Of a DNA stretch of 64,000 bases, positions 2,644 to 62,200 are shown one piece after another. The notes below the pieces were generated by a model. That model did not search any database. It saw only the letters and a list, made by a program, of their open reading frames with translations, and was not told where the DNA came from. Position numbers and translations under genes: made by a program. This DNA comes from Chloroflexota bacterium (GTDB lineage Bacteria; Chloroflexota; Dehalococcoidia; SHYB01). The stretch lies in the NCBI GenBank assembly GCA_016875535.1, contig VGPF01000004.1, positions 1,588 through 65,587 of the forward strand, written 5' to 3'. Each line of letters opens with the position of its first letter. Position 1 is the first letter of the stretch.

Positions 2644-2847
2644 CCTATTTCCCTTCCTCCTAGCACAACTGTCGTAACTGAACGATCGAACAACCTAACC
2701 TCCCGATGCGGAATCTAAGAGAAAGTCACTTGGTTAGCTTGGGCAATTGCGTTCGAAGTAGTCAGCAAAACGTCCCTCTCGAGCAGCGCCATCCCGATGG
2801 CGTGAGCTCGTCTTCGAGCTACGTGAGGGATTGAGGGAGAGGTCTCC

Positions 2848-5614: not shown

Positions 5615-7075
5615 ATGTGGAAGCTGCTGCTCGCAGTCTCCTTCGTCGCGGCCCTCCTCCTATCGGGCGCCCTCACCCATGCCCAGGGCAAACAGCCATC
5701 CCTGAGCATCACTGCACCTCGGCCAGGCAGCGTGCAGGCCAAGGCCGATGTTGAAATCAAGTTCAAGGCCGCGAACTTCAAGCTCGATGGCAAGTCCATC
5801 GGGGCCGGCAACAAGGCCGGCACCGGGCACATCGTCGTCTCCGTCAACGGCGTCGAGTTGACCCGCACCGCAAAGACCAGCATCAAAATCACGAGGCTTG
5901 ATGCAGGGGAGCACACCGTCACTGCCGCCCTCAGCAACAACGACCTCTCGCCGCTCGCGTCCCCCGTTGAAGCGAGTGTCACCTTCTCCTACCAACCGCC
6001 TGCCTCCGCAAAAGCAAGCTCCGGCTCGCTTGTGGTCCGGCCCACGCCGACCCTCACACCGACGCCAACCGCCACGCCGACGCCGACAGCGACTCCAACC
6101 CCAACACCGACCGTCACACCGACGCCGACACCGACGCCCACACCCACTCCAACACCGCCTCCCACTCCAACGCCCACGCCGACGCCAACACGAACGCCCA
6201 CGCCGACACCATCACCAACCCCCTCGATCTCTCAGGTCGCGTCGCGCTCACGGCCTGCCGTCGTGCGAATCAACGCGAGTGGCGCCAGCGGCAGCGGCTT
6301 CATCTTTGAGATTGACCGCGCTTCGGGTTCCGCCCTGGTTATGACCAATCAGCATGTCATCAGAGGAGCCCTCTCCTTGCGCGTCACGGTGAACGACAGC
6401 GACCAATACACGGCGACGCTCATCGGCGAGGACGCCTTCCGCGACCTTGCCGTCCTTCGCATTTGCTGTTCACCATCCTTCCAAGCCGCCGCCATCGTCC
6501 CCGATATCGGGATAGACCCAGGCGCTCCCGTCTTCACGCTTGGCTACCCGGTGAGCTTGCCGGGTCAGTCCACCCTCACCAACGGTATCCTGACGGCGAC
6601 GCGCTTCGATACTGCCTCGGACAGCTGGCTCATCCAGACCGATGCCGAAGTCAACCCAGGCAACAGCGGTGGGCCGCTCTTCCTCCTCGCCACCGGCGAA
6701 GTCATCGGCGTGGTCACGTCGCGCACCACCACCTCTGCCGATGGTCGTCCGGTCTTCGGCATCGGCTTCGCCGTCATGGGACGCACCGTTCTCGAGCGAT
6801 TACCTTCTCTCCGTTCAGGCGCCACGGCGCCCACGCCTGTGCCCACGCCGACCCCTACGCCGAACCCCCTGCCAAGCTCGGGCTTCGGCCCGGTCAGCGG
6901 CTCCCTGGCCCATTCCACAACAGCCGTCGCCAACGCCCTCGCCGGCATCGTGACAAGAGACGGCCTCGTTTCAGCGACCTTCACCGTTCCCTATACCGGC
7001 AGCACTGCGAACGGTTGGGACTTCGGCTTCTTCTTGCGATACACTGCCGCCACGGCAAATACCGCTAGCTCCTAG
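5615..7075 (+). CDS. Secreted trypsin-like S1 serine protease with Pro/Thr-rich linker
   Basis: Signal peptide. (PT)n linker. Catalytic motifs TNQHV, DLAVLRI and GNSGGPLF. Confidence 0.85.
6046..6232 (+). repeat. Tandem PT-encoding low-complexity repeat (ACNCCNACNCCG)n
   Basis: Read directly. Similar PT tracts occur at ~10390-10640 (minus-strand lipoprotein) and ~23650-23770. Confidence 0.8.
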
Positions 7076-15699: not shown

Positions 15700-18600
15700 G
15701 TGACGGCGGTTATGGCCAGAGACCTGATGACCAAGCATCCGCAGACAACCAGCGGGCATTCGCTCTTTGCCAGCCTGGCGGAGATCACTCCGGCGGGCGT
15801 CTATATCCTTGCCGGCGGCCGCTTCCGCCTGGTGAGCGACGCCTTCTGCGCCTTCACCGGCTACACCCGCGCTGAGCTCCTCGCCCTCGACCCCTGGACC
15901 ATCATCGCGCCCCAAGACCGGGAGCACGTCCGCGCTCAAGCCGTCAAGCGCCTCCGCTCCGGCGATACCTCCCCCTACCGCTTCCAGGCCGTCGCCAAGG
16001 ACGGCTCCCCGCGGTGGATCGTCGAATCCGTTCGCAGCGTCACCTTCGAAGGCACGCGCGCCACCCTCGGTAGCTTCTTCGATATCACCGAGTTCAAGCG
16101 CTCCGCTGATGCCCTTCGCGAGTCCGATGCCCAGCTCCGCTTCCTGGCGGAAACCTCCCGGGACGTCATCTTCATCCATCGGATCCGCCCCGCGCGCGCC
16201 TACGAATACATCAGCCCCAGCTGCGAAGCGTTGTTCGGCTTCGCGCCGCAGGACTTCTACGCCGCCCCCGATCTCCTCGCCCGCATCACCCTCCCGGACG
16301 ATCTTCCCCTCCTCAACCGCGACGTCAGCCGACCTGACTCCGCGGAAAGCCCCCCTCGCATCCGCGTCGTCCGCAAGGACGGCCGCGTTATCTGGATAGA
16401 GACCCGCGTCTCCTATGAGCGCGATCCCGCCGGCAAGCCCCTCGTCGCCCGGGGCATCATCCGCGATGTCACGGACTCCGTCCAGGCCAACCGCGCCCTC
16501 CGCCGGAGCGAAGAGAGCTTCCGCGCCATCGCCGAACACTCCAAGGACGTCATCTATCGCTACCACTATCAGCCCCAGCGCGGCTACGAATATATGAGCC
16601 CCTCAGCCCTGGCGCTCTACGGCTACAGCCCCGCCGATTTCTACAATGACAGCCGCCTCCTGACCAAGATCGTCCATCCGGACGACCGCAAGCTCCTGGA
16701 AGACCGCCCCAGCGGCCGCGCCAGGAGTGCGGAGCCTGCCACCGTCCGCATCATCACGAAAGACGGCAAGATGGTCTGGATCGAGCGCAGGGTCTCCTAT
16801 ATCTATGACGATGACGGCGCCCTTGTGGCCGCCCAGGGCATCACCCGTGACATCACCGACCGCGTCGAAGCCCAGGAGGCCCTCCGCGCGCGCGGCGAGA
16901 TCTTCCGCCTCCTGGCGGAAAATTCCGGTGACATGATCTACCGCTACCGCATGACCGAGCCCTACGGCTATGAATACGTCAGCCCCGCCGGTGCCGCCAT
17001 CTTCGGCTACACTCCGGAAGAGTTCTACGCCGACCCCAAGATCACCCGCAAGCTCTGGGCCCCGGAACAGGCCGATGCCATCCACAATGAGGTTAGCGAC
17101 CTCGATAAGTCGTGGCAGGCTCTGGTTCTGCCCGCCCAGCACAAGAACGGCGCCAAGCTCTGGGTGGAAGTCTCCCGCCGCTGCATCTTCGATGACCAAG
17201 GCGCCCTCTCCGCCGTCGAAGGCGTCATCAGGAACGTCACCCAGCGCGTGGAGGCCGAGCAGTCGTTGCGCAAGCGCGAAGAGACCTTCCGCCTCCTGGC
17301 GGAGAACGCCCATGACATGATCTACCGCTATCGGATGACAGAGCCCGTGGGCTACGAATACGTCAGCCCCGCCTGCGAGCGCATCTACGGCCTCACGCCG
17401 GAAGACTTCTATGCAGACCCCCACATCACACGCAAGTACTGGCTGAAGGACGATATCCCCGACTTGATGAAGCGGACCGGAAAGCTCAGCTCCGATTGGA
17501 CCACTTTCACCCACCGCTCCCTGCGCACGGACGGCGCCGTCATCTGGGTGGAAGTGACCCGCCGCCATCTCTTCGATGGCTCGGGCCGCTTGGCGGCGGT
17601 GGAAGGCGTCATCCGGGACGTCACCGAGCGCATGCAGCAACTGCAGGAGCTCGATCGCCGCCGCACCCTCTTGAACCAGCTCGTCATGTCCACCCCGGAC
17701 GCTCTCATCGTCGCCGACCCCGAGGGCCGCATCATCCTCGCCAATCCCGCCTGCCACGACCTCCTCAAAAAGGCCGAAGACTCCCTCGCAGGCGTCACCC
17801 TCTCAGACGCCCTTCCTCTGCCCGAGCTCTCCAGCGCCCTCACCGCAGGCCGGCACGTCACCAACCTGGAGCTCCGCTACCAGGAATCCGGCGCCGACCG
17901 CTACCTCATCGCCAGCGTCATCCCCATGCACAGCCCGGAAGCGGAAGGCGGCGCCGGCGATCTCTACCTCGTCATCCTCCATGACGCCACTATGGAGCGC
18001 GCCTCCCAGGCCGCCCTCTACCACACCGCGCGCCTCGCCTCCATCGGCGAGATGGCCGCCGGCGTCGCCCATGAGATCAACAACCCCCTCACCAGCGTCC
18101 TCGGCTATAGCGAGCTTATCTCCACCTCCCCGGCCCTCCCCCAGAGCCTCCGGCGTGACATCCTCACCATCAAGGCTAACGCCGAGCGCGCCTCCCACAT
18201 CGTTCGCAACCTCCTCGCCTTCGGGCGGCCCTACAAGCTCCAGCGCGCCCCCGTCAACATCAATGACGCCCTCGCCAGCGCCCTCCAGCTGCGCTCCTAC
18301 GAGCTCAAGGCCGGCAACATCCAGGTCGTCACCCGCCTCCAGCCCGACCTCCCGCGCATCATCGGCGATGGCAACCAGCTCCAGCAGGTCTTCATCAACA
18401 TCATCATCAACGCGGAGCACGCCATGCTCGCCGCCAACGGCAAGGGCGTCCTCGTCATCGCCACCGCAAAAGCCGGCGAGCGCGTCTCCATCTCTTTCGC
18501 CGATGACGGCCCCGGCATGACCCCCGATGTCATCGCCAAGATCTTCGACCCCTTCTTCACCACCAAAGAGCCCGGCAAAGGCACCGGCCTCGGCCTCTCC

Positions 18601-18720
18601 ATCTCCCACACCATCATCAAGGCCCACGGCGGCGATATCTCCGCCATCAGCTCCCCCGGCAAGGGCGCAACTTTCCTGATCACCCTGCCCGCTCAAGAGG
18701 CCGAGCAAAAAACGCCATGA
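15700..18720 (+). CDS. Multi-PAS (>=6 PAS/PAC) sensor histidine kinase
   Basis: Repeated PAS blocks (…DMIYRYRMTEPYGYEYVSPA…). HisKA box HEINNPLTSVLGY. HATPase_c motifs. Confidence 0.85.
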   Translation: MTAVMARDLMTKHPQTTSGHSLFASLAEITPAGVYILAGGRFRLVSDAFCAFTGYTRAELLALDPWTIIAPQDREHVRAQAVKRLRSGDTSPYRFQAVAKDGSPRWIVESVRSVTFEGTRATLGSFFDITEFKRSADALRESDAQLRFLAETSRDVIFIHRIRPARAYEYISPSCEALFGFAPQDFYAAPDLLARITLPDDLPLLNRDVSRPDSAESPPRIRVVRKDGRVIWIETRVSYERDPAGKPLVARGIIRDVTDSVQANRALRRSEESFRAIAEHSKDVIYRYHYQPQRGYEYMSPSALALYGYSPADFYNDSRLLTKIVHPDDRKLLEDRPSGRARSAEPATVRIITKDGKMVWIERRVSYIYDDDGALVAAQGITRDITDRVEAQEALRARGEIFRLLAENSGDMIYRYRMTEPYGYEYVSPAGAAIFGYTPEEFYADPKITRKLWAPEQADAIHNEVSDLDKSWQALVLPAQHKNGAKLWVEVSRRCIFDDQGALSAVEGVIRNVTQRVEAEQSLRKREETFRLLAENAHDMIYRYRMTEPVGYEYVSPACERIYGLTPEDFYADPHITRKYWLKDDIPDLMKRTGKLSSDWTTFTHRSLRTDGAVIWVEVTRRHLFDGSGRLAAVEGVIRDVTERMQQLQELDRRRTLLNQLVMSTPDALIVADPEGRIILANPACHDLLKKAEDSLAGVTLSDALPLPELSSALTAGRHVTNLELRYQESGADRYLIASVIPMHSPEAEGGAGDLYLVILHDATMERASQAALYHTARLASIGEMAAGVAHEINNPLTSVLGYSELISTSPALPQSLRRDILTIKANAERASHIVRNLLAFGRPYKLQRAPVNINDALASALQLRSYELKAGNIQVVTRLQPDLPRIIGDGNQLQQVFINIIINAEHAMLAANGKGVLVIATAKAGERVSISFADDGPGMTPDVIAKIFDPFFTTKEPGKGTGLGLSISHTIIKAHGGDISAISSPGKGATFLITLPAQEAEQKTP

Positions 18721-19345: not shown

Positions 19346-19568
19346 CAACCCATCTGCGTACGGGCAGCCCTTTCCCGTGAGCGTGCGCTGCGCCGATCTG
19401 TCCCTCTCCCGAGGTTCATTCCAATGAACCGTCGGGGAGAGGAACCCGAGAAGCATTTGTCCTCAGGCCGTATCCTCGGCCCCGATGTTTCCCGGAAGGT
19501 GAGGGTGCATCTTCCCCAGATTGCCTTCGTAATCCCATCCCCATCGGGCGCACACTCCGCCCTGGCCC

Positions 19569-30815: not shown

Positions 30816-30893
30816 AGAAAGAACCTGAGTGATCCAGGGGCAAAGCGCCCTGGGGCAGAAATACTATCGTGCACTTCTGCTCACGATAGTCTT

Positions 30894-30949
30894 CACCCTC
30901 TCCTCTCGGGCTACGCTCGAGTTCCTCTCCCATCGAGGGAGAGGAGGAT
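30894..30949 (+). repeat. Hairpin repeat element copy A (CACCCTCTCCTCTCGGGCTACGCTCGAGTTCCTCTCCCATCGAGGGAGAGGAGG)
   Basis: Terminal hairpin CCTCTCCC-atcga-GGGAGAGG. Near-identical copies at 52305 (inverted) and 54313. Confidence 0.8.
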
Positions 30950-38511: not shown

Positions 38512-38547
38512 GAGATCTCCGCACCCTCTCTCCCCCGGCTGGAGAGA

Positions 38548-39264
38548 ATGAAAGAGAGGAGGATCGAGAGCGCCATGATTTACTACCAAGACATCGTCCA
38601 AGCCGAACCCGGCATGATGGACAGATACCTGAAGATCTTCGGCGAAAAGGCCCTCCCGCCGCTGCTAGAGCGCGGCAACAAGCCCATCGGCATGTACCGC
38701 GTCGTCCCCGGCACAGGCACCTATAACGAAGTGATCTTCATCAACGGCATTGACGATTGGCGGCGCTGGGGCAAAGACGTGGCGACGACCGAAGGCCACC
38801 CCAATCGCGATGAGTGGCACCCCGGCGTGCGCTCCTGGGCCGAGATGGCCTTCGATTACCGCAAGCGGTGGATCAAGAACTTCTACTTCCCCGCGCCCTT
38901 TGCGCCATCGCATGAGCAGCTCATGAAGCGCAAGAAGAACGGCGCGACCTTCATCCACTTAATGTACCGCGTCACCCCGGGCAAGATGGAGCAGTGGCTC
39001 GATTTCGCAGGCTCCACCCTCAAGCCCGCCTGGGAGAAGCAGGGCATGGAGCTCATCACCTTTCTTCACATCTTCCCCGGCACCGGCCCCAGCGACCAGT
39101 GCGTGGAGCTCTGGGCCGTGAAGGACTGGAACGACTGGTCCGATGTGGTCCAGGCGCGCCAACGGCACCTGCCGCTCAAGCGCGCCCTCGCCAGGGCCCT
39201 CGCCTTCCGCGACCGCTGGGACGAGCGCACGCTTCTCCCGGCTCCCTGGTCGCCCGTCCAGTAG
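38548..39264 (+). CDS. NIPSNAP-like dimeric alpha/beta-barrel protein (two repeats)
   Basis: Two ~100-aa internal repeats. Weak family assignment. Confidence 0.45.
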   Translation: MKERRIESAMIYYQDIVQAEPGMMDRYLKIFGEKALPPLLERGNKPIGMYRVVPGTGTYNEVIFINGIDDWRRWGKDVATTEGHPNRDEWHPGVRSWAEMAFDYRKRWIKNFYFPAPFAPSHEQLMKRKKNGATFIHLMYRVTPGKMEQWLDFAGSTLKPAWEKQGMELITFLHIFPGTGPSDQCVELWAVKDWNDWSDVVQARQRHLPLKRALARALAFRDRWDERTLLPAPWSPVQ

Positions 39265-40772: not shown

Positions 40773-41678
40773 CTAGCGAAAGTTCGCCATGATCTTGGAG
40801 GCGAAGGTCTCCAACTGCTCGCAGTAGTGCTCCAGGGACTTCGCCCGGAAGTAGAAGTTCATCCCCGTGGCGCCCGCCTTTTGATAGGCCGCAATTTGGT
40901 CCACCAGGGCTGCGAAACCCTTCGGCTCGCTGATGTCATAGTTCGGGTCGCCCATGATGACGACTTCCAGGGGCGAGGCGCGGGCCTTCCACTCGGGAGT
41001 CTGCTTCACCGCCGTGATGATCTCGGTGAACTGCTCGATGGATAGGCCGGGGGTGTCCCAGCCGTCCGCACTCGCCACGGCGCGCCGCAGGGAGACCTTC
41101 GTGTTCCCGCCCAGCCAGATGGGCATGCGCTCCTGGACGGCGTGCGGGTCAATAATGAAATCATCGAAGTTGTAGTACTTCCCGTGAAAGACCGGCTGCC
41201 GCTCCCCCATGGCTGCGCGCAGGGCCTGCAGTCCCTCGGTGTAGCGCTCGGCCCGATGCTCGAACTCCACGCCCAGCAGGTCGAACTCCTCTTTCAACGT
41301 GCCGACGCCGACTCCCAGGATGAGCCGCCCGCCGGAGATCACGTCCAGCGTCCCGTAGCGCTTCGCCACGGAGAGCGGGTGGTGGTACGGCAGCACGATG
41401 ACGTGCGTCAGGAACTTCAGCCGCTTCGTCACCGCCGCCAGGTAGCCGAAGGTTGCCAGCGGGTCGTAGTACCGCGGCCCGCGCGACTGCACGATGTGCG
41501 TAGGGATGCCCACATGCTCGCTGCAGGAGATGTGGTGGATGCCCAGGCGGTCCGCCGTGACAGCGATCTGCCGCAGCTCCCTGGGGCCGCTCTCTACCTC
41601 CCACGGCTGGTGCCGGCGCGTCAGGTGCGTCGCGATTGGCGTCACCAGCCCGAAGAGCATCCCGCGCTCAGCCATCAA
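40773..41678 (-). CDS. LLM-class F420-dependent oxidoreductase (paralog a)
   Basis: Luciferase-like fold. 50% identity to the adjacent paralog. Confidence 0.8.
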   Translation of the reverse strand: MMAERGMLFGLVTPIATHLTRRHQPWEVESGPRELRQIAVTADRLGIHHISCSEHVGIPTHIVQSRGPRYYDPLATFGYLAAVTKRLKFLTHVIVLPYHHPLSVAKRYGTLDVISGGRLILGVGVGTLKEEFDLLGVEFEHRAERYTEGLQALRAAMGERQPVFHGKYYNFDDFIIDPHAVQERMPIWLGGNTKVSLRRAVASADGWDTPGLSIEQFTEIITAVKQTPEWKARASPLEVVIMGDPNYDISEPKGFAALVDQIAAYQKAGATGMNFYFRAKSLEHYCEQLETFASKIMANFR

Positions 41679-41741
41679 TCCCCCCGATCATCCTTGGCTC
41701 AAGCTCCGTCTTCCTACTCTGTGCGCTCTGTGGACGAATCT

Positions 41742-42644
41742 CTACTGGAACTTCCCCGCGACTCGGTCCCTAAATATCTCCAGCTGTTCGCAGTAGTGCT
41801 CCAGGGATGTTGAGCGGAAATACATGTTGAGGATCGTCCCGCCCGCCCTTCGATAGCTGGCGATCTGGTCCGTCACGCCGGCAAGCCCGCTCGTGGTCGT
41901 GACGTCGTAGACCGGCTCCGGCCCGAGCACCACATCGAAGGGCTCCCTCCGCGATCGCCACTCAGGCCACTGCTTCGCCTCGGGCAGCAGCGCGCCCAGC
42001 GTCGCCAGGTCGAAGCCGAACGGGTCCCAGCCGTCGGCCGAGGCCAGCGCCCGCTTGAGCGAAAGCTTGGTGCGCCCGCCCAGCCAGATCGGCACATGCT
42101 CCTGTACGCCGTGGGGCTCGATCACGAAGTCGTCGAACTCGTAGAACTTCCCCTTGAAGACGGGCTTCTGCTTGCCGAAGGATTCGCGAAGAGCCTGCAG
42201 CGCCTCCGTGTAGATCTCCCCACGGCGCTCGAACTCGGCGCCCAGCAGCTCGAACTCTTGCCGCAGGCTGCCGACGCCGATGCCCAGGATGACCCGCCCT
42301 TCGGACATCCTGTCCAGCGTGCCGTAACGCTTCGCCACCGCGAGCGGGTGATGGTACGGCAGCACCAGCACGTGGGTCGCGAACCGGATGCGCTTGGTAA
42401 GCGCGGCGAAATAGCCGAAGGTCGCCAGCGGATCGTAGTAGCGGTGGCCGCGTATCTTCCCGATCTCCGTGGGGATGCCCACATGCTCGCTGCACGTCAT
42501 GTGGTAGAAGCCGCAGCGGTCCGCCGTGATGGCGATCTGCCGCAATTCCGCCGGGCCGCCCTCCGTCTCCCATTTCCCATGCCGCCTGGGCAAATGCGTC
42601 AGGATCGGCGTCAAGATGCCGAACTTCAGCGCCTGCTCTGCCAT
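41742..42644 (-). CDS. LLM-class F420-dependent oxidoreductase (paralog b)
   Basis: Tandem duplicate of the previous gene. Confidence 0.8.
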   Translation of the reverse strand: MAEQALKFGILTPILTHLPRRHGKWETEGGPAELRQIAITADRCGFYHMTCSEHVGIPTEIGKIRGHRYYDPLATFGYFAALTKRIRFATHVLVLPYHHPLAVAKRYGTLDRMSEGRVILGIGVGSLRQEFELLGAEFERRGEIYTEALQALRESFGKQKPVFKGKFYEFDDFVIEPHGVQEHVPIWLGGRTKLSLKRALASADGWDPFGFDLATLGALLPEAKQWPEWRSRREPFDVVLGPEPVYDVTTTSGLAGVTDQIASYRRAGGTILNMYFRSTSLEHYCEQLEIFRDRVAGKFQ

Positions 42645-47859: not shown

Positions 47860-47933
47860 TGCCCCGTTGTGTAGCGGTAGCACAGAGGACTTTGGATCCT
47901 TTAGCCCTGGTTCGAATCCAGGCGGGGCAGCCA
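47860..47933 (+). tRNA. tRNA-Gln (anticodon TTG)
   Basis: Manual fold: U1:A72 (as in bacterial tRNA-Gln). 3-bp D-stem. Anticodon stem GAGGA/TCCTT with loop CT-TTG-GA. T-arm CCTGG-TTCGAAT-CCAGG. Encoded CCA. Confidence 0.8.
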
Positions 47934-52264: not shown

Positions 52265-52304
52265 CCCTCTTTGGGTGGAAGTTCACTTCTGCCCGCGCGC
52301 TTCT

Positions 52305-52350
52305 CCCTTGATGGGAGAGGAACTCGAGCGTAGCCCGAGAGGAGAGGGTG
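52305..52350 (-). repeat. Hairpin repeat element copy B (inverted orientation)
   Basis: Reverse complement of copy A with one mismatch. Confidence 0.8.
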
Positions 52351-54244: not shown

Positions 54245-54312
54245 GGACTTACATGATACAGCAGGGCTCTGTATCAGAATCAGAGTTGTAAACCGATGGT
54301 CCGACAATCAAT

Positions 54313-54366
54313 CACCCTCTCCTCTCGGGCTTCGCTCGAGTTCCTCTCCCATCGAGGGCGAGGAGG
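54313..54366 (+). repeat. Hairpin repeat element copy C
   Basis: TCACCCTCTCCTCTCGGGCTTCGCTCGAGTTCCTCTCCCATCGAGGGCGAGGAGG. Confidence 0.8.
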
Positions 54367-55167
54367 ACTGGGGCGAGGTCTCCTTTAGGAGGGGGACTGC
54401 TCAGCGCGGCTTGCAGTGTCCCGGCGGATCGTCTGATTGTGTGTTCCGCGATCGTGGTTGGCGGATACGGCGTTGCGCAGACGGCCCAAGGTTCGAGGTG
54501 TCCCGGTGCCACCGGGGACTGCGAGGCTCGGCAGGGGCGCTGCGCACCTTGGAGAGATGCGCGCCGCCTCCGGCGTTTCTCCCTTGCGGGAGGACGGGCC
54601 CACCGAACGCCCAGCGACAGGTGTCTGCCGGCCAGCCTCGCGGGTGAGCCTACGGGAATCTACGAGGCGCATGCCTTGCGCCTCTTCGCCCCGCCCCGCT
54701 AACGGGGCGAGCGCTGTCTGCGAACGAAGACCTCCTTTGGGGCCTTGCCCCGGATATGCGGGTGGCCCTTAGGGCGCACCCCTACGGCGCATCCCTACCA
54801 GAATGTTCAGCCCGGCGGGTTGAACTCCGGAGGGCGTGCCTTTCGCCTCCCGATGGGATCGGGATCTCCGACGCCCTCTTATGAGGACGTCTTCGACCTA
54901 CCTTTCATTTCCTCTCCCTGTAATGCCTTGCCGCGCGAGGAGTCTTCGGCGGTTCGGCGCGCGCCCTACGCGTCGGGCTTACGCCGGCCACTGGGGCCGT
55001 CCACGCAACGCTGGACAAACAAAAAGGGGAAGCGTTCCGACCGAGGGCGCGGTTTCGCGCTCCTTCGAATCGTCACGCCTCCCCGGCTCGCTGTCCTGGC
55101 GAAGGCTTACAAGTGAATAATAGTCAGGTTGTGCGAGAGCGTCAAGAGCTTAGCTTCGTCCCTGGAG

Positions 55168-56378: not shown

Positions 56379-56447
56379 CCCCTCACCTCTCGGGAAGCAT
56401 CGGAATGCTTCTCGAGTTCCTCTCCCCCGATGGGGCGAGGGACGAGG
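56379..56447 (+). repeat. Hairpin repeat element copy D (variant with internal AAGCAT-cgga-ATGCTT palindrome)
   Basis: CCCTCACCTCTCGGG...CTCGAGTTCCTCTCCCCCGATGGGGCGAGGGACGAGG. Confidence 0.7.
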
Positions 56448-57102: not shown

Positions 57103-57225
57103 GAACAGTTTCCCTGGGGAAGGTGTGGGAACCATGATAGCAGGTTGGGCGGTGCATCCGGCGAATCATTGCTATACTGCGTCACCTGGGGAACGTGCTC
57201 AAGCTGGTGCTTAAGCCAGGGAAAA

Positions 57226-57282
57226 TCACCCTCTCCCTTCGAGGGACTCAGGACAAGCTCTCTCCCATCAAGGGAGAGGAGG
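57226..57282 (+). repeat. Hairpin repeat element copy E (variant)
   Basis: TCACCCTCTCCCTTCGAGGGA...CTCTCCCATCAAGGGAGAGGAGG. Confidence 0.7.
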
Positions 57283-57344
57283 TCAAAGAAGCATCACTCC
57301 CTTGGCGCGCTTTGGCCGGGGAGCTTACGGAGCGGCAGGTGGCT

Positions 57345-59903
57345 ATGGATACGCGCGCAATCGCAGGGCTGCGGGTGCTGGACATGAGCCGGGGGATCGC
57401 GGGCGCATATTGCACGAAGCTTCTGGCTGACCTGGGGGCAGAGGTTATCTTTCTCGAGCCTCCGGGCGGCCACCCGCTGCGTCGAGAGGGGCCGTTTCTC
57501 ACGAGGCTGGGCAGGCCGGATGAGAGCGGGCTCTTTCATTTTCTGTGCGCGAATAAGTCGGCGATCATCGCGGATGTGGGAGTACCCTCATCTGAGACAG
57601 GAGCACCCTCTCCCGGCTTAGCGAGAGACTCGCAAAGCCGACCTCTCCCATCGAGCCCCGAAAGGCTCGGGGTGCGCGATAGGAATCGGCAGGAGAGGAA
57701 CGATGAGGCGGAGCGAGTGCGGAGGCTGATCGCAGGGGCGAACTTGGTGGTGGAGGATGGGCAGCCTGGAGAGATGGCGAGCCGCGGCTTGGGCCATGCA
57801 GCGCTGAAGGGGCTGCATCCATCCCTGGTGGTGACTTCGCTCACGCACTTTGGGCCGACGGGGAGATGGCGCGACTGGGAGGGGAGCGAGATCGCTGATT
57901 GGGCGATGGGCGGCTATATGTATTTCGGAGGGCATCCGGAGCGGGAGCCTTTGATGATCCCGTGCGACCAGGCGGCCTTCCATGCGGGGGTGCAGGCGGC
58001 GATCGGGTCGCTGGCGGCGCTGCGGTGGGCGAAGGCGACGGGCCAGGGACAGCGCGTGGAGGTCTCCGCGCTGGAGGCGCTGCTCTCCGCGCACATCTGG
58101 ACGGTGGCGCGGTGGACGCACCACGGGCAGGTGATGCGGCGGACGGGGACGGACGTGACGCGCTGCAAGGACGGCTTCGTGCGGTTCCTGGTGAACCGCT
58201 ATACGCCGGAGATGTTCCTGCTGGTTGACCGTCCGGACCTGATGGACGACCCGCGCTTCGCCGACCAGCCGAGCTGGCGGAAGAACTATCCCGAATTCCG
58301 CGTGATCCTGGAGGAGTGGTGCCTGGGACAATCGAAGGACGACATCTTCCGCCGAGGTCAGGAGCTGCGGATCCCGTGCGCGCCGGTGTGGGATGCGAAG
58401 GATCTGAGCACATCGGCGCTCTTGCAGGAGCGGAAGTGGCTTGTGGCGTACGAGCCGGGGCTGGTTTTTCCGGGGTATCCATATCTTATGAGCGAATCGC
58501 CGCCTTCGCTGCGAAAGCGGGCGCCGGTGTTGGGAGAGTCGGTGGAAGACTGGGCAAGCCCAGGGAATCCCCCTCTCTTTTCTTCTCTCCCGCCAGGGGA
58601 GAGAAAAGGAGCGCGGAAGGCCGCTTCCCGGCAAAAGAACAAAAGGAGGTTGCCGCTGGAGGGTATGCGGGTGCTGGAGATCACGGGGAACTGGGCGGGG
58701 CCGTACGCGGGACGCATGCTGGCGGACCTGGGGGCGGAGGTCATCAAGATCGAGGACCCAAAGAATCCCCAGGGGCGCAATATGCTGTACCCAGGGATCC
58801 AGCCGCTGAAGCACCACTACAACCGCTCGGCCTATTTCAACAAGCTGCACCGGAACAAGAAGTCGCTGACGCTGGACGTGAGCGAGCCGGAGGGCCGCGA
58901 GACCTTCCTGAAGCTCATCGAGCTTTCCGATGTGTTCATCGAGAACACGAGCCTGCGGGTGATGCGGAACTTCAACATCCGCTATAAAGACTTGCGCAGG
59001 GTGAACCCGCAGCTCATCTACGCGGCGATCTCGGCCTTTGGCGATACTGGGGCGCTGGCGGACTATGTGGCCTACGGCGGCAATATCGAGGCGGCCTGCG
59101 GGCTTTCGGCGGTGATGGGCTACCTGGGGGAGGACTATCCGTACAACAGCGGGCAGTTCTACTGCGACCCGATCACGGCTTCGCACGCGGCGGTGGCGGT
59201 GCTGGCGGCGCTGGAGTACCGGGAGCGCACGGGGAAGGGGCAGTACCTGGACCTTTCGCTGGCGGAGAACGGGATCAACTTTTTCGCGGAGTCGTTCCTG
59301 GAGTATGTCTGCACCGGGAAGAAGCGCCCGGCGATGGGGAATCGCCATCCGGTCTACGCGCCCCAGGGGTGCTATCCCACTGTGGGGGACGATATGTGGA
59401 TGGTGGTGACGGTGCGCTCGGATGAGGAATGGCAGCGGTTCGCTGATGTGCTGGGTGCGCCGGAGCTGAAGGACGAGCGGTATCGCACGGTGGAGGGAAG
59501 GCGGCGGCACCACGATGAGCTGGACGCCATGATCAAGAAGTGGTCGGCACGGTACGACCATGTAGAGGCGTCGTCGCTCTTGCAGCGGGTGGGGATTTCG
59601 GCGGCGCCGGTGCTGACGAACTGGGAAATGGTAAGCAACGCGCATATCTTCGACCTTGGCTTTTACCAAACGATCCCCCACCCGGAGATGGGGGCCTATC
59701 CGCAGCCTGGGATGCCGTGGCGGCTTTTGGAGTCGCCCGGGGTTATCCAGGCGCCGGCGCCGCTCTATGGGGCGCACAACGAGGAGATCCTGCGGGGGCT
59801 GCTGAAGCTGCCAGAGGAGCGCCTGGCGACGCTGTATGGGAAGGGGATCGTGGCGGACGTGCCGCCGAGGACGATACCGCCGCCTGCGGTGCTGAATACG
59901 TAG
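57345..59903 (+). CDS. Tandem-fused family III CoA-transferase (two complete CaiB/BaiF-like modules in one ORF)
   Basis: Two N-terminal motifs (GLRVLDMSRGIAGAYCTKLLADLGAEVIFLE and GMRVLEITGNWAGPYAGRMLADLGAEVIKIE), each followed by a full CoA-transferase body. No stop codon separates them. Confidence 0.7.
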   Translation: MDTRAIAGLRVLDMSRGIAGAYCTKLLADLGAEVIFLEPPGGHPLRREGPFLTRLGRPDESGLFHFLCANKSAIIADVGVPSSETGAPSPGLARDSQSRPLPSSPERLGVRDRNRQERNDEAERVRRLIAGANLVVEDGQPGEMASRGLGHAALKGLHPSLVVTSLTHFGPTGRWRDWEGSEIADWAMGGYMYFGGHPEREPLMIPCDQAAFHAGVQAAIGSLAALRWAKATGQGQRVEVSALEALLSAHIWTVARWTHHGQVMRRTGTDVTRCKDGFVRFLVNRYTPEMFLLVDRPDLMDDPRFADQPSWRKNYPEFRVILEEWCLGQSKDDIFRRGQELRIPCAPVWDAKDLSTSALLQERKWLVAYEPGLVFPGYPYLMSESPPSLRKRAPVLGESVEDWASPGNPPLFSSLPPGERKGARKAASRQKNKRRLPLEGMRVLEITGNWAGPYAGRMLADLGAEVIKIEDPKNPQGRNMLYPGIQPLKHHYNRSAYFNKLHRNKKSLTLDVSEPEGRETFLKLIELSDVFIENTSLRVMRNFNIRYKDLRRVNPQLIYAAISAFGDTGALADYVAYGGNIEAACGLSAVMGYLGEDYPYNSGQFYCDPITASHAAVAVLAALEYRERTGKGQYLDLSLAENGINFFAESFLEYVCTGKKRPAMGNRHPVYAPQGCYPTVGDDMWMVVTVRSDEEWQRFADVLGAPELKDERYRTVEGRRRHHDELDAMIKKWSARYDHVEASSLLQRVGISAAPVLTNWEMVSNAHIFDLGFYQTIPHPEMGAYPQPGMPWRLLESPGVIQAPAPLYGAHNEEILRGLLKLPEERLATLYGKGIVADVPPRTIPPPAVLNT
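57604..57674 (+). repeat. Hairpin repeat element copy F, inserted in-frame inside the CoA-transferase CDS
   Basis: CACCCTCTCCCGGCTTAGCGAGAGACTCGCAAAGCCGACCTCTCCCATCGAGCCCCGAAAGGCTCGGGGTG encodes a ~50-aa insertion between the conserved ADV and LVVEDG segments. Confidence 0.7.
58585..58604 (+). repeat. Short hairpin CTCTCCC-gcca-GGGGAGAG in the linker joining the two CoA-transferase modules
   Basis: Read directly. Same CTCTCCC/GGGAGAG arm motif as the repeat family. Confidence 0.5.
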
Positions 59904-60129
59904 GGGGACGACCTAACCCCTGACCTCCCGATGCGAAATCGAGGCCGAAGGTCCGGCCTGAGGACAGATCTCGATGACTCGACGTGTGAGTGCCCTCTTG
60001 TAGCTAGAGGACTAGCACAGCTCCTAAGAAGGGTATTAACTTACTTGCCTCAGTAAGCCAGCATGCAATAGTATTGCCTCGTCCTAGCCTGGAACCAGTC
60101 CATATGATCGAGGGTTGCACCTCACAGCG

Positions 60130-60999
60130 ATGCTAACGTTGGATGCATATGCAGATGAGAGCGGTGTTGAGGAAGCACCGGACTACTGCCTGATTGCAGG
60201 CTACATCGGTGCGCCGTCTACCTGGGAGTCCTTCAACCGACGCTGGATGGTTGCGCTTGACGGTGTGCCTGAGTTTCACGCAAAAGAGTTCTTCCCCCGC
60301 CGACGGGCGTTGAGTACTCGGAGTCCGTACCACGGCTGGAGTATTGAGAAGCGAGTCGCCTTTATCAGAAGGCTTGTGGGTGTCATCAAAAACCATGCAC
60401 TCTTACCTGTCGGTTCTGCTGTCGAAGTTGCTCCGTTTAGAGAGTTATCGCAAGAAGAGAGACGCATCTTCATAGGAGCAATCATCCGACAAATCACAGT
60501 GCACTTGAATCGGGTCGGAGGGCCTACTAGTCGCCAATTCACAGCCAGGTCAGAGTTCACACTCAAAGGAACGGGCTCTCCGCAGCGCCCCTATTTTGTG
60601 GCGTTTCGGAGCTTCTTAGAAGATACAATGCGCCACATCGCCTCGGGGACCAAGCTCAATATAACCTTGGATAGGAATAGGTCGCTTGAAGCTTACGCCG
60701 TTGATTTATTCAATCAGCTTGCAAAGGCGTGGGGCGACGCAGACCCACAGAAACGCCTAGGGCTGTTTGGGTATGCGGACTCATCCGAGCCTCCACTACA
60801 GGCGGCTGACTTGTATGCCTACATATGGACGCGGCGGCTTCATTCTCGAAGTATTACTCAGGAAATGCTAGAGACGGCCCCGGTCTTTGATGGATCAACA
60901 ATATCGGTTGTACGCCGAACCGACTTTGTGGAAATGCTGAAAAGCATGCGCGCTGGGCTGTCCGAGTTCAATGAAGTACCACTAAGGACGCCTTTGTGA
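60130..60999 (+). CDS. DUF3800-like hypothetical protein in a low-GC islet
   Basis: N-terminal LTLDAYADESG resembles the DUF3800 start. Local GC is visibly lower (~50%) than the flanks. Confidence 0.5.
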   Translation: MLTLDAYADESGVEEAPDYCLIAGYIGAPSTWESFNRRWMVALDGVPEFHAKEFFPRRRALSTRSPYHGWSIEKRVAFIRRLVGVIKNHALLPVGSAVEVAPFRELSQEERRIFIGAIIRQITVHLNRVGGPTSRQFTARSEFTLKGTGSPQRPYFVAFRSFLEDTMRHIASGTKLNITLDRNRSLEAYAVDLFNQLAKAWGDADPQKRLGLFGYADSSEPPLQAADLYAYIWTRRLHSRSITQEMLETAPVFDGSTISVVRRTDFVEMLKSMRAGLSEFNEVPLRTPL

Positions 61000-61099: not shown

Positions 61100-62200
61100 T
61101 CCCCTTTGCGGGGAGTCTCTTGCTTCTCCATCGTTTACCCCTTCCTTGCTTACGCAGGCGTCGTATTGGGGAGCGGCGAGGGTGCGCCGGTCAATTGTGC
61201 ATAGGTCAGTCGCTTGCCTGCGATCCGTCCGGCTACTTGTCGGGATCTGCCGCCGTCCTTGTCTCCGCGAGTGTTGTACCGAAACACCTCTTCGTCGAGG
61301 TATCTGAACAGATGGAACGGCTCGACGCTTACATATGTGCCTCGGATAGCCCTCTTCAGGAGGCTCCAGAAGTTTTCAACGCCATTGGTGTGGACATGCC
61401 CCTTCACATACGCCTCGGCATGGTTGATGATGTTGTGGACATATTCGGTATTGATGCCCTTATAGCCTGTCCAGTCATCGGTGATGACCTCGGAGCCGGG
61501 TTCGATGTGGTGGCGCACCATCGGCTGAAGAGTCTGCCGCTTCACGTCGGCAATCATCTTGGCCTTGACTGTGCTGTATCCATCCTTGCCATGCCGAGCC
61601 AAGAGGCCCATCACCGCAACCTTACCCACCATGCCAGTCGCGCCCTTGATGACCTTCTCTCTACGGCTCTTGTGCATGAATCGGGCCTGCCCGCCGATGA
61701 AAGTCTCGTCCACTTCAACTCTGCCTCCGAATATCCCGGTGTCACCCTCCATAGCCAAGCGGATGCGATGGAGCATGAACCAGGCGGTCTTTTGAGTCAC
61801 GCCAAGGCTACGGGCGATCTCATAGCTGGAGACGCCATTCTTGGCGTTGGCAATCATCCAGATAGCGGCAAGCCATTTATCAAGCCCAATGGGGCTGTCC
61901 TCAAAGATGGTCCCGACTTTGACCGAGAATTGCCGCTTGGCATGCTTAGTCTTGCACTCCCAGAGACGGCGAGTCGAAATGAAGCGCACGTCTTTACTCT
62001 GGCAAGAAGGGCACGTGACGCCATCAGGCCAGCGCAGCTTGACCATGTAGTCCAAGCAGGTGTCAGGGTCAGAAAAGTGCCGGATCGCTTCAAGAAGAGT
62101 CTTAGGTGTTGCCATCGCCGTCTCCTGTTTTCCTCTGTACAACAGAAGTCTAGCAGGGAAAGGCTGCTGAGTCAAGTATATTATTGCCCTAAGAAGGAGC
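61100..62200 (-). mobile_element. IS1595-family insertion sequence (approximate bounds; terminal inverted repeats not resolved)
   Basis: Contains the transposase gene. Lower GC. Flanked by the DUF3800 islet and hairpin repeats. Confidence 0.45.
61150..62115 (-). CDS. IS1595-family transposase (N-terminal zinc ribbon plus DDE domain)
   Basis: Zinc ribbon CPSCQS...C..K. DDE_Tnp_IS1595-like core (…FIGGQ…HTNGVENFWSLLKR…). Confidence 0.75.
   Translation of the reverse strand: MATPKTLLEAIRHFSDPDTCLDYMVKLRWPDGVTCPSCQSKDVRFISTRRLWECKTKHAKRQFSVKVGTIFEDSPIGLDKWLAAIWMIANAKNGVSSYEIARSLGVTQKTAWFMLHRIRLAMEGDTGIFGGRVEVDETFIGGQARFMHKSRREKVIKGATGMVGKVAVMGLLARHGKDGYSTVKAKMIADVKRQTLQPMVRHHIEPGSEVITDDWTGYKGINTEYVHNIINHAEAYVKGHVHTNGVENFWSLLKRAIRGTYVSVEPFHLFRYLDEEVFRYNTRGDKDGGRSRQVAGRIAGKRLTYAQLTGAPSPLPNTTPA

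Follow-up and report, generated by a model that had tools for sequence, protein, structure and literature searches.

A single-chain family III CoA-transferase of a Chloroflexota bacterium with translated in-frame copies of a triplex-type repeat

Introduction

The locus raises the question of how two family III CoA-transferase modules came to share one reading frame in a Chloroflexota bacterium and whether the short repeats that are translated together with them had any part in this. The original prediction, which was made from the DNA alone, proposed that adjacent paralogous CoA-transferase genes had fused when their intergenic spacer became open reading frame, possibly by repeat activity, and that the product is a single-chain version of a homodimer. 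We analysed the gene within a 64-kb stretch of DNA, which is called the window throughout, and compared it with homologues, protein structures and published repeat families.

Results

Integrity of the reading frame

The following features define the gene and its upstream region.

57345..59903, forward strand: fused family III CoA-transferase coding sequence, 852 aa plus stop (Pfam, homologues, independent assemblies)
57195..57344, forward strand: in-frame upstream extension with GTG start (homologue N-termini and the NCBI annotation begin at 57345)
57228..57283, forward strand: repeat copy E, triplex-motif element with 8 triads (upstream region; fold z = -2.4)

The open reading frame (57195-59903, forward strand) opens with GTG and comprises 902 codons. 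From the ATG at 57345 it encodes 852 amino acids and it ends with a TAG at 59901-59903; the length of 853 given originally included the stop codon. The NCBI entry MBM4405032.1 ('CoA transferase [Chloroflexota bacterium]') is identical to the product of 57345..59903, and the start methionine at 57345 is common to all aligned homologues and to the NCBI annotation. The upstream extension had been described as repeat-encoded and probably untranslated, and this description holds, with a repeat copy at 57228-57283 and homologues and NCBI starting at 57345. Judged from these start sites, 57195..57344 is most likely 5' untranslated sequence that separates the CoA-transferase from the divergent yajQ-like gene.

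A missing stop, a frameshift or a chimeric repeat insertion in the assembly might create a falsely long reading frame; the sequence comes from a MAG, and metagenome assembly can go wrong at repeats. However, reading frames of the same length, with both of the inserts described below, were found in separate NCBI, JGI, ENA and Logan assemblies, which differ by 1-4 amino-acid substitutions and by no indels. Two assemblies carry distinct substitutions (M441V in one, K421R/R429G/M441V/M729I in the other), and both inserts are kept there without indels. When we scanned JGI metagenomes, one close contig was recovered (L004, 99.3% nucleotide identity), which begins at 58667, downstream of both inserts and of the junction. 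Moreover, an orthologue from a different sample bears homologous inserts, and full-length homologues confirm the read-through. Neither a stop nor a frameshift is present at the module junction and the reading frame is uninterrupted. The independent assemblies exclude sequencing error as source of the long reading frame, and an artefact of this kind is extremely improbable.

Two unequal modules

The coding sequence can be divided as follows.

57345..58529, forward strand: module 1 (aa 1-395), BbsE-like, probably non-catalytic CoA_transf_3 (Pfam, PDB match, alignment)
58530..58652, forward strand: inter-module linker (aa 396-436), with low model confidence, a dN/dS of 0.70 and a native basic C-terminal part
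58653..59900, forward strand: module 2 (aa 437-852), BbsF-like, predicted catalytic CoA_transf_3 (Pfam, PDB match, alignment)
59166..59168, forward strand: codon of Asp608, predicted catalytic nucleophile (Y-A/C-D-P motif; aligns with BbsEF D178)

The presence of two complete family III modules of the CaiB/BaiF/Frc type on one reading frame was confirmed by Pfam (PF02515 CoA_transf_3, E = 1.3e-169, 564.6 bits at a cut-off of 23.3, in three stretches). Module 2 covers positions 1-366 of the 366 model positions, and the match of module 1 falls into two stretches that are split by an insert. PDB relatives were recovered for both modules, and no solved chain in the PDB spans both of them. All seven hits to NCBIfam equivalogs (succinate-glutarate, succinyl-CoA:mesaconate, formyl-CoA, CaiB, Mct) stayed far below the cut-offs, the best one reaching 312.7 bits at a cut-off of 750 (succinate-glutarate CoA-transferase). 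Quantification of dN/dS yielded 0.12 for module 1, 0.10 for module 2 and 0.70 for the linker. Both modules are under purifying selection and the linker evolves almost neutrally. An AF2 model of the 852-aa chain reached a pLDDT of 91.7 and a pTM of 0.93, and its confidence was low only at aa 85-102 and at about aa 410-435. This pTM implies a confident inter-module geometry of the model, and together with the superposition of each module on the BbsEF chains it suggests that the modules may interlock.

The catalytic aspartate of the family (Frc/CaiB D169, BbsEF D178) forms covalent intermediates, and an acyl-aspartyl anhydride and an aspartyl-CoA thioester are typical of family III CoA-transferases. 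D608 of module 2 does not vary in the family alignment (115 of 115). Its alignment partner is D178 of BbsEF chain 9fn0_B, and D178 bears the CoA adduct in PDB entry 9fol. In module 1, the canonical position corresponds to aa 211, which is alanine here and M, Q, A or E across the family; there is no conserved aspartate, and the nearby Q209 (57969-57971) is invariant in the family alignment. The family-invariant residues that we checked (Y606, D608, P609, Q209) are all intact, and a Variovorax homologue of 33% identity has the same catalytic asymmetry. D208 was considered as catalytic aspartate of module 1 and was rejected, since alignment to 4ed9 and to Frc-type sequences puts the canonical site at 211.

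Judged from the alignment, module 1 is probably inactive. The predicted single-chain homodimer was not borne out: with D608 in module 2 and no conserved aspartate in module 1, the protein resembles a pseudo-heterodimer with one catalytic module. According to the mechanism we propose, the N-terminal, BbsE-like module 1 would have lost the canonical nucleophile and would act as structural partner, and in the C-terminal, BbsF-like module 2 Asp608 would form the anhydride and thioester intermediates. Since the nucleophile would come from module 2 alone, there is probably one productive active site per chain. The enzyme most likely exchanges CoA with a small (di)carboxylate, the putative substrate, and has succinyl-CoA or acetyl-CoA as the other partner. 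As a side observation, an aspartate is located at position 208 of the window protein and of the orthologue P0002, three residues ahead of the canonical site, where it could conceivably act.

In the window, the gene is surrounded by genes for a citrate synthase, a DUF520/YajQ protein, an unknown ORF and an IS1595 transposase. The orthologue loci have ribosomal proteins, PlsY and DUF1385 as neighbours. No gene neighbourhood is conserved across these loci, and the substrate is not deducible from the context; a dicarboxyl-CoA catabolic cluster was found around the distant Variovorax homologue only. A DMSP-catabolic neighbourhood consists of a BCCT transporter, dddB/dddC and a LysR regulator. Such neighbours (dddT/B/C/R-type) are absent at the window locus, and bbs genes are absent near the gene.

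Age of the fusion

It can be seen from the database comparison that each of the best 120 hits has the one-gene architecture (41-84% identity, about 780-908 aa). At least 114 one-chain homologues of 41-84% identity, which are mostly from Chloroflexota, have linkers free of repeats, and the same is true for proteobacterial and actinobacterial one-chain homologues of about 30-33% identity. On replicons of Variovorax, Rhodococcus and Bosea, homologues of about 32-33% identity were recovered as a single tblastn piece. The linkers of the homologues have a median length of 38 aa (range 29-81), and that of the window protein has 45 aa. When the N-terminal 200 aa were searched against the protein database, the only fragments recovered had 34-40% identity and no close orthologue fragments were found.

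Orthologues are encoded by one gene, and an arrangement as two genes was not found among them. This result confirms the reading frame but it removes the claimed novelty of the fusion. Judged from these homologues, the fusion is ancient; its clade is common among Chloroflexota and extends to Proteobacteria and Actinobacteria.

These data bear directly on the fusion of tandem paralogues proposed in the original prediction, which is taken here as a recent event. It is true that the linker holds a repeat copy and evolves almost neutrally, and that heteromeric two-gene relatives (BbsE/BbsF) exist. However, all close and distant homologues found, down to about 30-33% identity, are already fused by linkers of 29-81 aa that contain no repeat, and even the nearest orthologue (P0002, 84% identity) is fused yet lacks the repeat. 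Moreover, the two modules share only 22% identity and are therefore not recent paralogues, and the native basic segment of the linker is common to orthologues without inserts. A recent fusion by repeat activity has, in our view, a minute probability. The enzyme itself is an ordinary member of an old and widespread fused family, and its sole oddity is the two translated in-frame repeat copies. With it, a large and uncharacterised clade of family III CoA-transferases that are naturally fused and asymmetric gains one further member. This clade, more than the present copy, is a reasonable target for solving the structure of a single-chain intertwined pseudo-dimer.

Repeat copies in the coding sequence

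Triplex-type motifs were defined as three consecutive homopurine/homopyrimidine blocks, of which one pairs by Watson-Crick and one by mirror (Hoogsteen-compatible) symmetry, with 6-15 triads and at most 1 mismatch; the ITxF definition of the loops is 1-6 nt. With this test we found 9 loci in the 64-kb window and 0-1 in shuffles. Three of the repeat copies (E, F, G) cluster at the CoA-transferase gene. By sequence geometry, copies A, C, E, F, G and H and both inserts of the orthologue P0003 have 8-10 triads. Loops within 1-6 nt are found only in copy G (3 and 3 nt) and copy H (5 and 5 nt). In copies A, C, E and F, as in the P0003 inserts, the first loop is 18-28 nt long and accommodates an extra hairpin, and the second loop of copy F measures 41 nt. 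Because of the long first loops in most copies, the element can be regarded as a long-loop variant of the TM motif discussed below. It was found at at least 120 loci in a scan of a genome collection, distributed over many phyla, and identical copies are present on Thermoflexus hugenholtzii MAG contigs; the element is multi-copy in the Thermoflexus-like genome of the window. Within the 64 kb, intragenic in-frame copies (F and G) occur in one gene only.

57579..57704, forward strand: lineage-specific in-frame insertion in a loop of module 1 (aa 79-120; homologue alignment, AF2)
57606..57699, forward strand: core of repeat copy F (RNA fold, triplex geometry, homologue alignment)
58570..58605, forward strand: repeat copy G, compact three-arm triplex motif with 10 triads (triplex geometry scan)

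The insertion in module 1 consists of 15 extra nucleotides (GVPSS), a native-looking ET and a repeat-derived block (G86-R120, 57600-57704). It extends the loop to 48 aa at a family median of 10, and P0003 is the only other sequence with a long loop. The insert is predicted to be disordered (pLDDT < 50 at aa 85-102) and then to lengthen the following helix. The in-frame repeat copy F, which had been claimed for this module, is real. Its arms are CCCTCTCC (arm1, 57606), CCTCTCCC (arm2, 57642) and AGGAGAGG (arm3, 57691), with an inner hairpin (GGCTT-AGCGAG-AGA-CTCGC-AAAGCC) between arm1 and arm2 and a nested hairpin block of about 35 nt between arm2 and arm3. The core (57606-57699) folds more stably as RNA than its composition predicts (z = -3.7, more exactly -3.74; 0 of 200 shuffles as stable).

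In the linker, the hairpin CTCTCCC-GCCA-GGGGAGAG is present at 58585-58603 as described. By itself it does not exceed the stability expected from its composition (z = -1.5, 15 of 200 shuffles), and it forms part of the three-arm triplex-type motif at 58570-58605. This copy G has the arms CCCCTCTCTT, TTCTCTCCCG and GGGGAGAGAA, which are separated by loops of 3 and 3 nt, and encodes approximately PPLFSSLPPGER. The linker had been described as encoding a basic low-complexity peptide. Only about 36 nt of the linker are repeat-derived; the basic part (…ARKAASRQKNKRRLPLEG) is native, because orthologues without inserts have it too.

At the boundaries of copy F and of the P0003 inserts, no clear target-site duplication was seen in the codon-level alignment, and no transposase was identified for the repeat, whose arms are by their nature mirror or inverted repeats. 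For these reasons we infer insertion from the presence and absence of the repeat among orthologues. An Rfam search returned tRNA and nothing else, the promoter scan gave 0 hits, and terminator-like hits were at chance level.

Fate of the inserts

The orthologue P0003 (74% identity) has related inserts at both sites and in frame, and the sister of each insert-bearing sequence is free of them (P0002, 84% identity, and P0004). We also considered whether the genomes of P0002 and P0004 are free of the element. Here, 0 hairpins were found in about 8 kb each, but this argument is weak since the density of the window predicts no more than about 1 copy.

In the scenario we favour, copies of a G/C-rich intrastrand-triplex repeat would have landed in or beside an old CoA-transferase scaffold. 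The only survivors would be those that were in frame, free of stops and placed at structurally permissive sites, one of them a loop on the surface of module 1 and the other the flexible linker between the modules. These copies would be translated as disordered or low-complexity peptide, an outcome resembling that of the Rickettsia palindromic elements (RPEs).

The repeats might instead have impaired the enzyme, with the frame still open only because the events are recent. A disordered insertion of 38 aa in a loop of a Rossmann-type domain could be harmful, three repeat copies crowd one gene, an IS1595 transposase is located nearby and the downstream synteny is broken relative to P0002. Such decay is very unlikely in view of dN/dS values of 0.10-0.12 on both modules, intact invariant residues among those checked, a model that is confident outside the inserts and the lack of frameshifts among population variants. 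In addition, the orthologue of 74% identity holds homologous inserts in frame, which indicates either long tolerance or repeated selection for the frame.

The comparison of the window gene with P0003 may also suggest that the inserts have been co-opted as mRNA or DNA structure (pausing, mRNA stability, local recombination or instability) or as functional disordered peptide. The insert core is 90% identical in these two sequences, and the gene is 75.5% identical. The core has a pS of 0.065 and a pN of 0.155, a pattern of conservation at the nucleotide rather than the protein level. The inner hairpin remains paired by a double compensatory change (GCGAG/CTCGC to GTGAG/CTCAC), and the folds of the inserts are significantly stable (z = -3.7 and -3.3). 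However, the same pattern is expected if both inserts arrived recently and independently from conserved master elements, or if gene conversion homogenised them, and the comparison involves two sequences only. Furthermore, P0002 and P0004, the sister orthologues, manage well with no inserts, and work on TM motifs in E. coli revealed no regulatory role (PMC4666352). Taken together, we consider co-option unlikely.

A wider reading, which we regard as doubtful, is that TM/BoxC-like repeats, whose published copies lie strictly between genes, are RPE-like colonisers of coding sequences in Thermoflexus-like Chloroflexota, with a copy in module 1 that is ancestral or was re-inserted at the same codon. 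If ancestral, it would have been kept since the split of the window gene and P0003 (about 25% protein divergence), with hairpins maintained by compensatory change and precise loss occurring twice. If this reading is true, selection would act on non-B nucleic-acid structure in a coding sequence, or the insertion would be targeted to specific sites.

Returning to the favoured scenario, the gene very probably encodes a functional single-chain pseudo-heterodimeric CoA-transferase of an ancient fused clade, in and near which copies of a triplex repeat have landed. TM/BoxC-type motifs can become translated at permissive sites within a conserved enzyme. For annotation, these repeats are a warning in two respects: they make spurious N-terminal extensions (902 instead of 852 aa), and the low-complexity 'linkers' they create can be mistaken for evolutionary novelty.

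Discussion

Tandem class III CoA-transferases on a single chain have been described before. An example is DddD, a DMSP CoA-transferase/lyase with two tandem class III (CaiB-like) domains on one polypeptide (residues 1-416 and 439-821 in E. acroporae; PMC7174347). DddD of Marinomonas, Halomonas and Endozoicomonas (about 820-840 aa, short linker) has the same architecture as the window protein, as judged from its published description. A passage of PMC4437653 that cites Alcolombri et al. 2014 states that DddD activity needs one catalytic aspartate, and SAR202 Chloroflexi have been observed to contain DddD-like proteins (PMC5395668). Repeat insertions are unreported in DddD, and the likeness does not imply lyase activity for the window protein.

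Taken module by module, BbsEF, the succinyl-CoA:(R)-benzylsuccinate CoA-transferase (PDB 9fn0/9fol), was the best match in both sequence and fold. Its chains B/D match module 2 (E = 2e-58, TM 0.95, 30% identity) and its chains A/C match module 1 (E = 5e-37, TM 0.89, 23% identity). Chains A/C have 'PDNQ' and, like module 1, no aspartate at the canonical position. Both systems combine one catalytic with one non-catalytic unit, which for the window protein is a prediction. BbsE and BbsF are separate polypeptides that are encoded in the bbs operon in the context of anaerobic toluene degradation, whereas the window protein is one chain and has neither context. Its sequence suggests that it works like BbsEF without being a member of BbsEF.

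The repeat matches the TM/BoxC-like motif, its triplex character being deduced here from sequence geometry and hairpin energetics. TM (TMECO in E. coli) is a G/C-rich intrastrand triplex motif related to BoxC (Holder et al. 2015, PMC4666352). The window repeat shares its arms (CCCTCTCCC and GGGAGAGGG plus a third mirror arm), its geometry, its multi-copy nature and its occurrence in many phyla, and it matches TMECO Table 1. The compact E. coli motif measures 34-37 nt, has loops of 3-5 nt and is reported to be 'always located intergenically' (PMC4666352). In contrast, the first loop of most window copies is long (18-28 nt) and holds an additional hairpin, the second loop of some contains a nested one, and two copies lie in frame within a conserved enzyme gene. 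TM loci show raised insertion/deletion variation between relatives (PMC4666352), and the coming and going of the repeats between close orthologues fits the proposed role in local genomic instability.

In-frame insertions of MITEs into genes have been documented for RPEs, which occur in functional genes that are unrelated to one another (PMC10969869). Like RPEs and other intragenic MITEs, the window element is short, structured and multi-copy, and it is translated in frame at positions compatible with the fold (PMC10969869). With copies F and G, a multi-copy element is located in frame in a functional gene, which is under purifying selection. RPEs are AT-rich, measure about 100-150 bp and are restricted to Rickettsia (and Wolbachia), whereas the window element is a GC-rich polypurine/polypyrimidine repeat of Chloroflexota.

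The reading frame of the CoA-transferase

The proposal that two CoA-transferase modules share a single ORF was borne out. The frame is uninterrupted over 57195-59903(+) (902 codons counted from GTG; stop TAG 59901-59903), and its sole Pfam match was CoA_transf_3 (PF02515; E = 1.3e-169). The match falls into three stretches: one for module 2, which covers positions 1-366/366 of this model, and two for module 1, which is interrupted by an insertion. Counted from the ATG at 57345, the CoA-transferase comprises 852 aa and is listed at NCBI, with equal length, as MBM4405032.1 ('MAG: CoA transferase [Chloroflexota bacterium]'). Versions of 902 aa in the same 90% cluster come from JGI, ENA and Logan assemblies; compared with the window, they show 1-4 substitutions (e.g. 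M441V, M729I, and the linker changes K421R and R429G) but no indel. Since these separate assemblies agree, a frameshift or stop error at the junction can be discarded. The extension at 57195-57344 carries a repeat copy (57228-57283), as had been claimed, and it is probably untranslated, because every aligned homologue and the NCBI annotation start at the Met of 57345.

Immediately downstream of the gene, we observed an ORF without Pfam match (60115-60999(+)) and an IS1595-family (ISXO2-like) transposase (61150-62175(-)). At L001, the closest orthologue locus, this place is taken by DUF1385 and by the genes for ribosomal proteins L31, L27 and L21, and thus there has been local rearrangement beside the gene in the window lineage.

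Age and spread of the fusion

The original prediction was that the spacer between tandem paralogues had become open reading frame, possibly through repeat activity. We searched 5.8 billion proteins and examined the best 120 matches. Here, we found one gene throughout, down to 41% identity: all matches were about 780-908 aa long (41-84% identity), nearly all covered 95-100% of the query, and the named sources among them were Chloroflexota or Dehalococcoidia. When plasmids and secondary replicons were searched by tblastn, full-length single-piece matches (~30-33% identity, annotated 'CoA transferase') were obtained from Variovorax, Rhodococcus, Bosea, Neorhizobium and Diaphorobacter. P0002, the orthologue closest to the window protein at 84% identity, is fused and has a basic linker that lacks the repeat. 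The two modules share only 22% identity, and their dN/dS values against P0002 (0.12 and 0.10) indicate purifying selection on both, whereas the linker is nearly neutral (0.70). With 45 aa its length is unremarkable (29-81 aa, median 38, in an alignment of 115 sequences). A recent repeat-driven fusion is unsupported, because the homologues are fused, the P0002 linker is repeat-free, and the modules are divergent and under purifying selection. Judged from these sequence comparisons, the fusion is old and not a recent accident.

In some genomes, several family III CoA-transferase genes lie within a few kb: L133 (1-1310 and 6001-8415) has another fused paralogue (792 aa), and L134 (6001-8427 and 9770-10954) has a single-module enzyme (394 aa). 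This clustering suggests family expansion, as reported for SAR202.

Fold and asymmetry of the modules

AlphaFold2 modeling with the 115-sequence alignment yielded a mean pLDDT of 91.7 and a pTM of 0.93, and low confidence was confined to aa 85-102 (pLDDT < 50) and roughly aa 410-435. In Foldseek searches of the PDB, both modules matched family III CoA-transferases, with the succinyl-CoA:(R)-benzylsuccinate CoA-transferase BbsEF on top (9fn0 chains D/B: TM 0.95, 30% identity; chains A/C: TM 0.89, 23% identity), and no solved chain spanned more than one module. In sequence searches, the partner of module 2 was 9fn0_B (E = 2e-58) and that of module 1 was 9fn0_A (E = 5e-37).

Asp608 of module 2 aligned to D178 of 9fn0_B, the CoA-adduct residue in entry 9fol, and its Y-A/C-D-P motif was invariant in 115/115 fused homologues. 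The equivalent position 211 of module 1 is M/Q/A/E across the family; Q209 is the sole invariant residue nearby, and Asp208 of the window protein is N/H/Y in most relatives. The same asymmetry is seen in the Variovorax homologue (33% identity), where module 1 reads '…SQ…' and module 2 'YPD'. A single-chain homodimer, as originally envisaged, does not fit this pattern, and the protein is instead predicted to be a pseudo-heterodimer, in which one module is putatively catalytic and the other would serve as its structural partner.

All NCBIfam equivalog scores were far below cut-off, and no conserved gene neighbourhood was found among the orthologue loci compared. The 865-aa Variovorax homologue (L135; Variovorax sp. 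SRS16 plasmid 3, 392-7299) neighbours genes for HMG-CoA lyase, an MmgE/PrpD-family protein, acyl-CoA dehydrogenase and MaoC-type dehydratases, which hints at dicarboxyl-CoA metabolism for the Variovorax branch only. A tripartite tricarboxylate transporter binding protein gene is also present. This cluster may give a clue to the class of substrates used by the fused clade.

Repeat copies in the gene and the window

Repeat copies in the window (those at ORF edges are canonical copies)
2773-2841 (-), ORF edge, between genes
19368-19442, ORF edge, between genes
30893-30948, ORF edge, between genes
38526-38564, copy H, ORF edge, between genes
52300-52350 (-), ORF edge, between genes
54312-54395, ORF edge, between genes
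56390-56445, repeat copy
57228-57283, copy E, just upstream of the start
57600-57704, block containing the copy F core, CACCCTCTCCC-GGCTT·AGCGAG·AGA·CTCGC·AAAGCC-GACCTCTCCC-ATCGAG-[35-nt nested hairpins]-AGGAGAGG
58570-58605, copy G, compact, in the linker

The in-frame copy F in module 1 was confirmed. The loop after the fourth strand (aa 77-124) measures 48 aa, whereas the median of 114 homologues is 10, and the only other long loop (39 aa) is that of P0003 (74% identity). The 105-nt block is preceded by 15 extra nt (57579-57593), and the fold of copy F was more stable than that of shuffles (z = -3.74, 0/200 as stable). As for the linker, the repeat itself is there, but the basic peptide also occurs in repeat-free P0002. 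F and G are the only intragenic copies in the window.

In its general form, this multi-copy element has three polypurine/polypyrimidine arms, CACCCTCTCC-[variable hairpin]-CCTCTCCC-ATCR-RGGGAGAGG. Nine three-arm loci were counted in the window, three of them at the CoA-transferase gene, compared with 0-1 in shuffled sequence. A pattern scan with one genome per species gave at least 120 loci, and in about half of the matches listed the required CTCTCCCATC was followed by RRGGGAGAGG, which the pattern did not require. It follows that the element is real: its arms are conserved, also across phyla, and its inner hairpin varies. Among the matches listed were Pseudoxanthomonas, Hyphobacterium, Maricaulaceae, Azonexus, deltaproteobacterial MAGs, Dehalococcoidia and Thermoflexus (loci include L015, L026, L031, L075, L106 and L130); L106 and L130 are contigs of a Thermoflexus hugenholtzii MAG with copies identical to the window A-C type, which puts the source organism in the vicinity of Thermoflexales. 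No Rfam family matched the repeat, and the sole gathering-level Rfam match in the window was one tRNA gene (47860-47930; RF00005, 61.9 bits). Copy H lies upstream of a NIPSNAP-domain gene, with its terminal GAGAGGAGGA about 10 nt from the ATG at 38575, and for this reason its purine arm could double as, or sequester, a Shine-Dalgarno-like sequence.

Arms and geometry agree with the G/C-rich intrastrand triplex motif TM/TMECO, a relative of BoxC with the form CCCTCTCCC-loop-GGGAGAGGG-loop-GGGTGAGGG. Copies A, C, E, F, G, H and both P0003 inserts passed the geometry check (8-10 triads, <= 1 mismatch): the purine arm is matched in Watson-Crick fashion by one pyrimidine arm and has its parallel (mirror) complement in another. 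Copy G is a textbook compact motif (10 triads, loops 3 and 3); most other copies have a long loop 1 with an extra hairpin. We read the repeat, from its sequence, as a probable long-loop variant of the TM-type repeat, a form that would escape the 1-6-nt loop definition of Holder et al. 2015. TM motifs occur in > 260 genomes, lack a link to known mobile elements and go along with raised indel variation among related strains (PMC4666352).

History of the inserts

Protein and nucleotide identities and synteny gave the relationships ((window, P0002), (P0003, P0004)). The window and P0003 carry inserts at both sites; P0002 and P0004 carry none, and their module 1 loops have the native 10-aa length. 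The module 1 inserts share their frame, lie immediately 5' of the same Asn codon and have in common an inner hairpin, GGCTT…AAAGCC, found in none of the other copies inspected (window, P0003 locus); within it, a double compensatory change (GCGAG/CTCGC -> GTGAG/CTCAC) is seen. Because frame, position and specific hairpin are shared, a single ancestral insertion, precisely lost twice afterwards, is favoured. Precise loss of a palindrome is plausible and in keeping with the instability that has been reported at TM loci. However, the 51-nt insert core is 90% identical between window and P0003, compared with 75.5% for the gene (core pS = 0.065), as expected if conserved master copies inserted independently and recently, or under gene conversion or selection on nucleic-acid structure. 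With two sequences compared, we lean slightly towards shared ancestry over independent insertion.

Other repeated segments of the window

Long 12/18-nt-period runs (6025-6234 and 6825-6876) in ORF 5615-7075 encode a Thr/Pro-rich low-complexity linker. Four direct repeats at 16136-17637 (384-nt spacing, 61-76% identity) in the 1006-aa ORF 15700-18720 are consistent with tandem duplicated putative sensor (PAS-like) domains. At 41046-42314, 300-nt segments 969 nt apart (73% identical) fall in neighbouring ~300-aa ORFs, 40773-41678(-) and 41742-42644(-), probably tandem paralogous genes.

Comparison with known systems

Natural fusion of class III CoA-transferases is already known from the DMSP CoA-transferase/lyase DddD, which has two CaiB domains (1-416 and 439-821; PMC7174347) and requires a single catalytic aspartate (PMC4437653). 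Proteins resembling DddD have been recorded in SAR202 Chloroflexi (PMC5395668). Our enzyme appears to be a fused asymmetric family III CoA-transferase with BbsEF-like working and DddD-like architecture, not demonstrably a member of either; the BbsE/BbsF logic of one catalytic and one partner module would here operate within a single chain. As for the repeat, the E. coli TM motif is 'always located intergenically' (PMC4666352), whereas here two copies lie in frame within a conserved enzyme, a case that, in the data examined, rests on one gene and its orthologue. The parallel is with the Rickettsia palindromic elements (PMC10969869), repeats that are likewise translated in frame.
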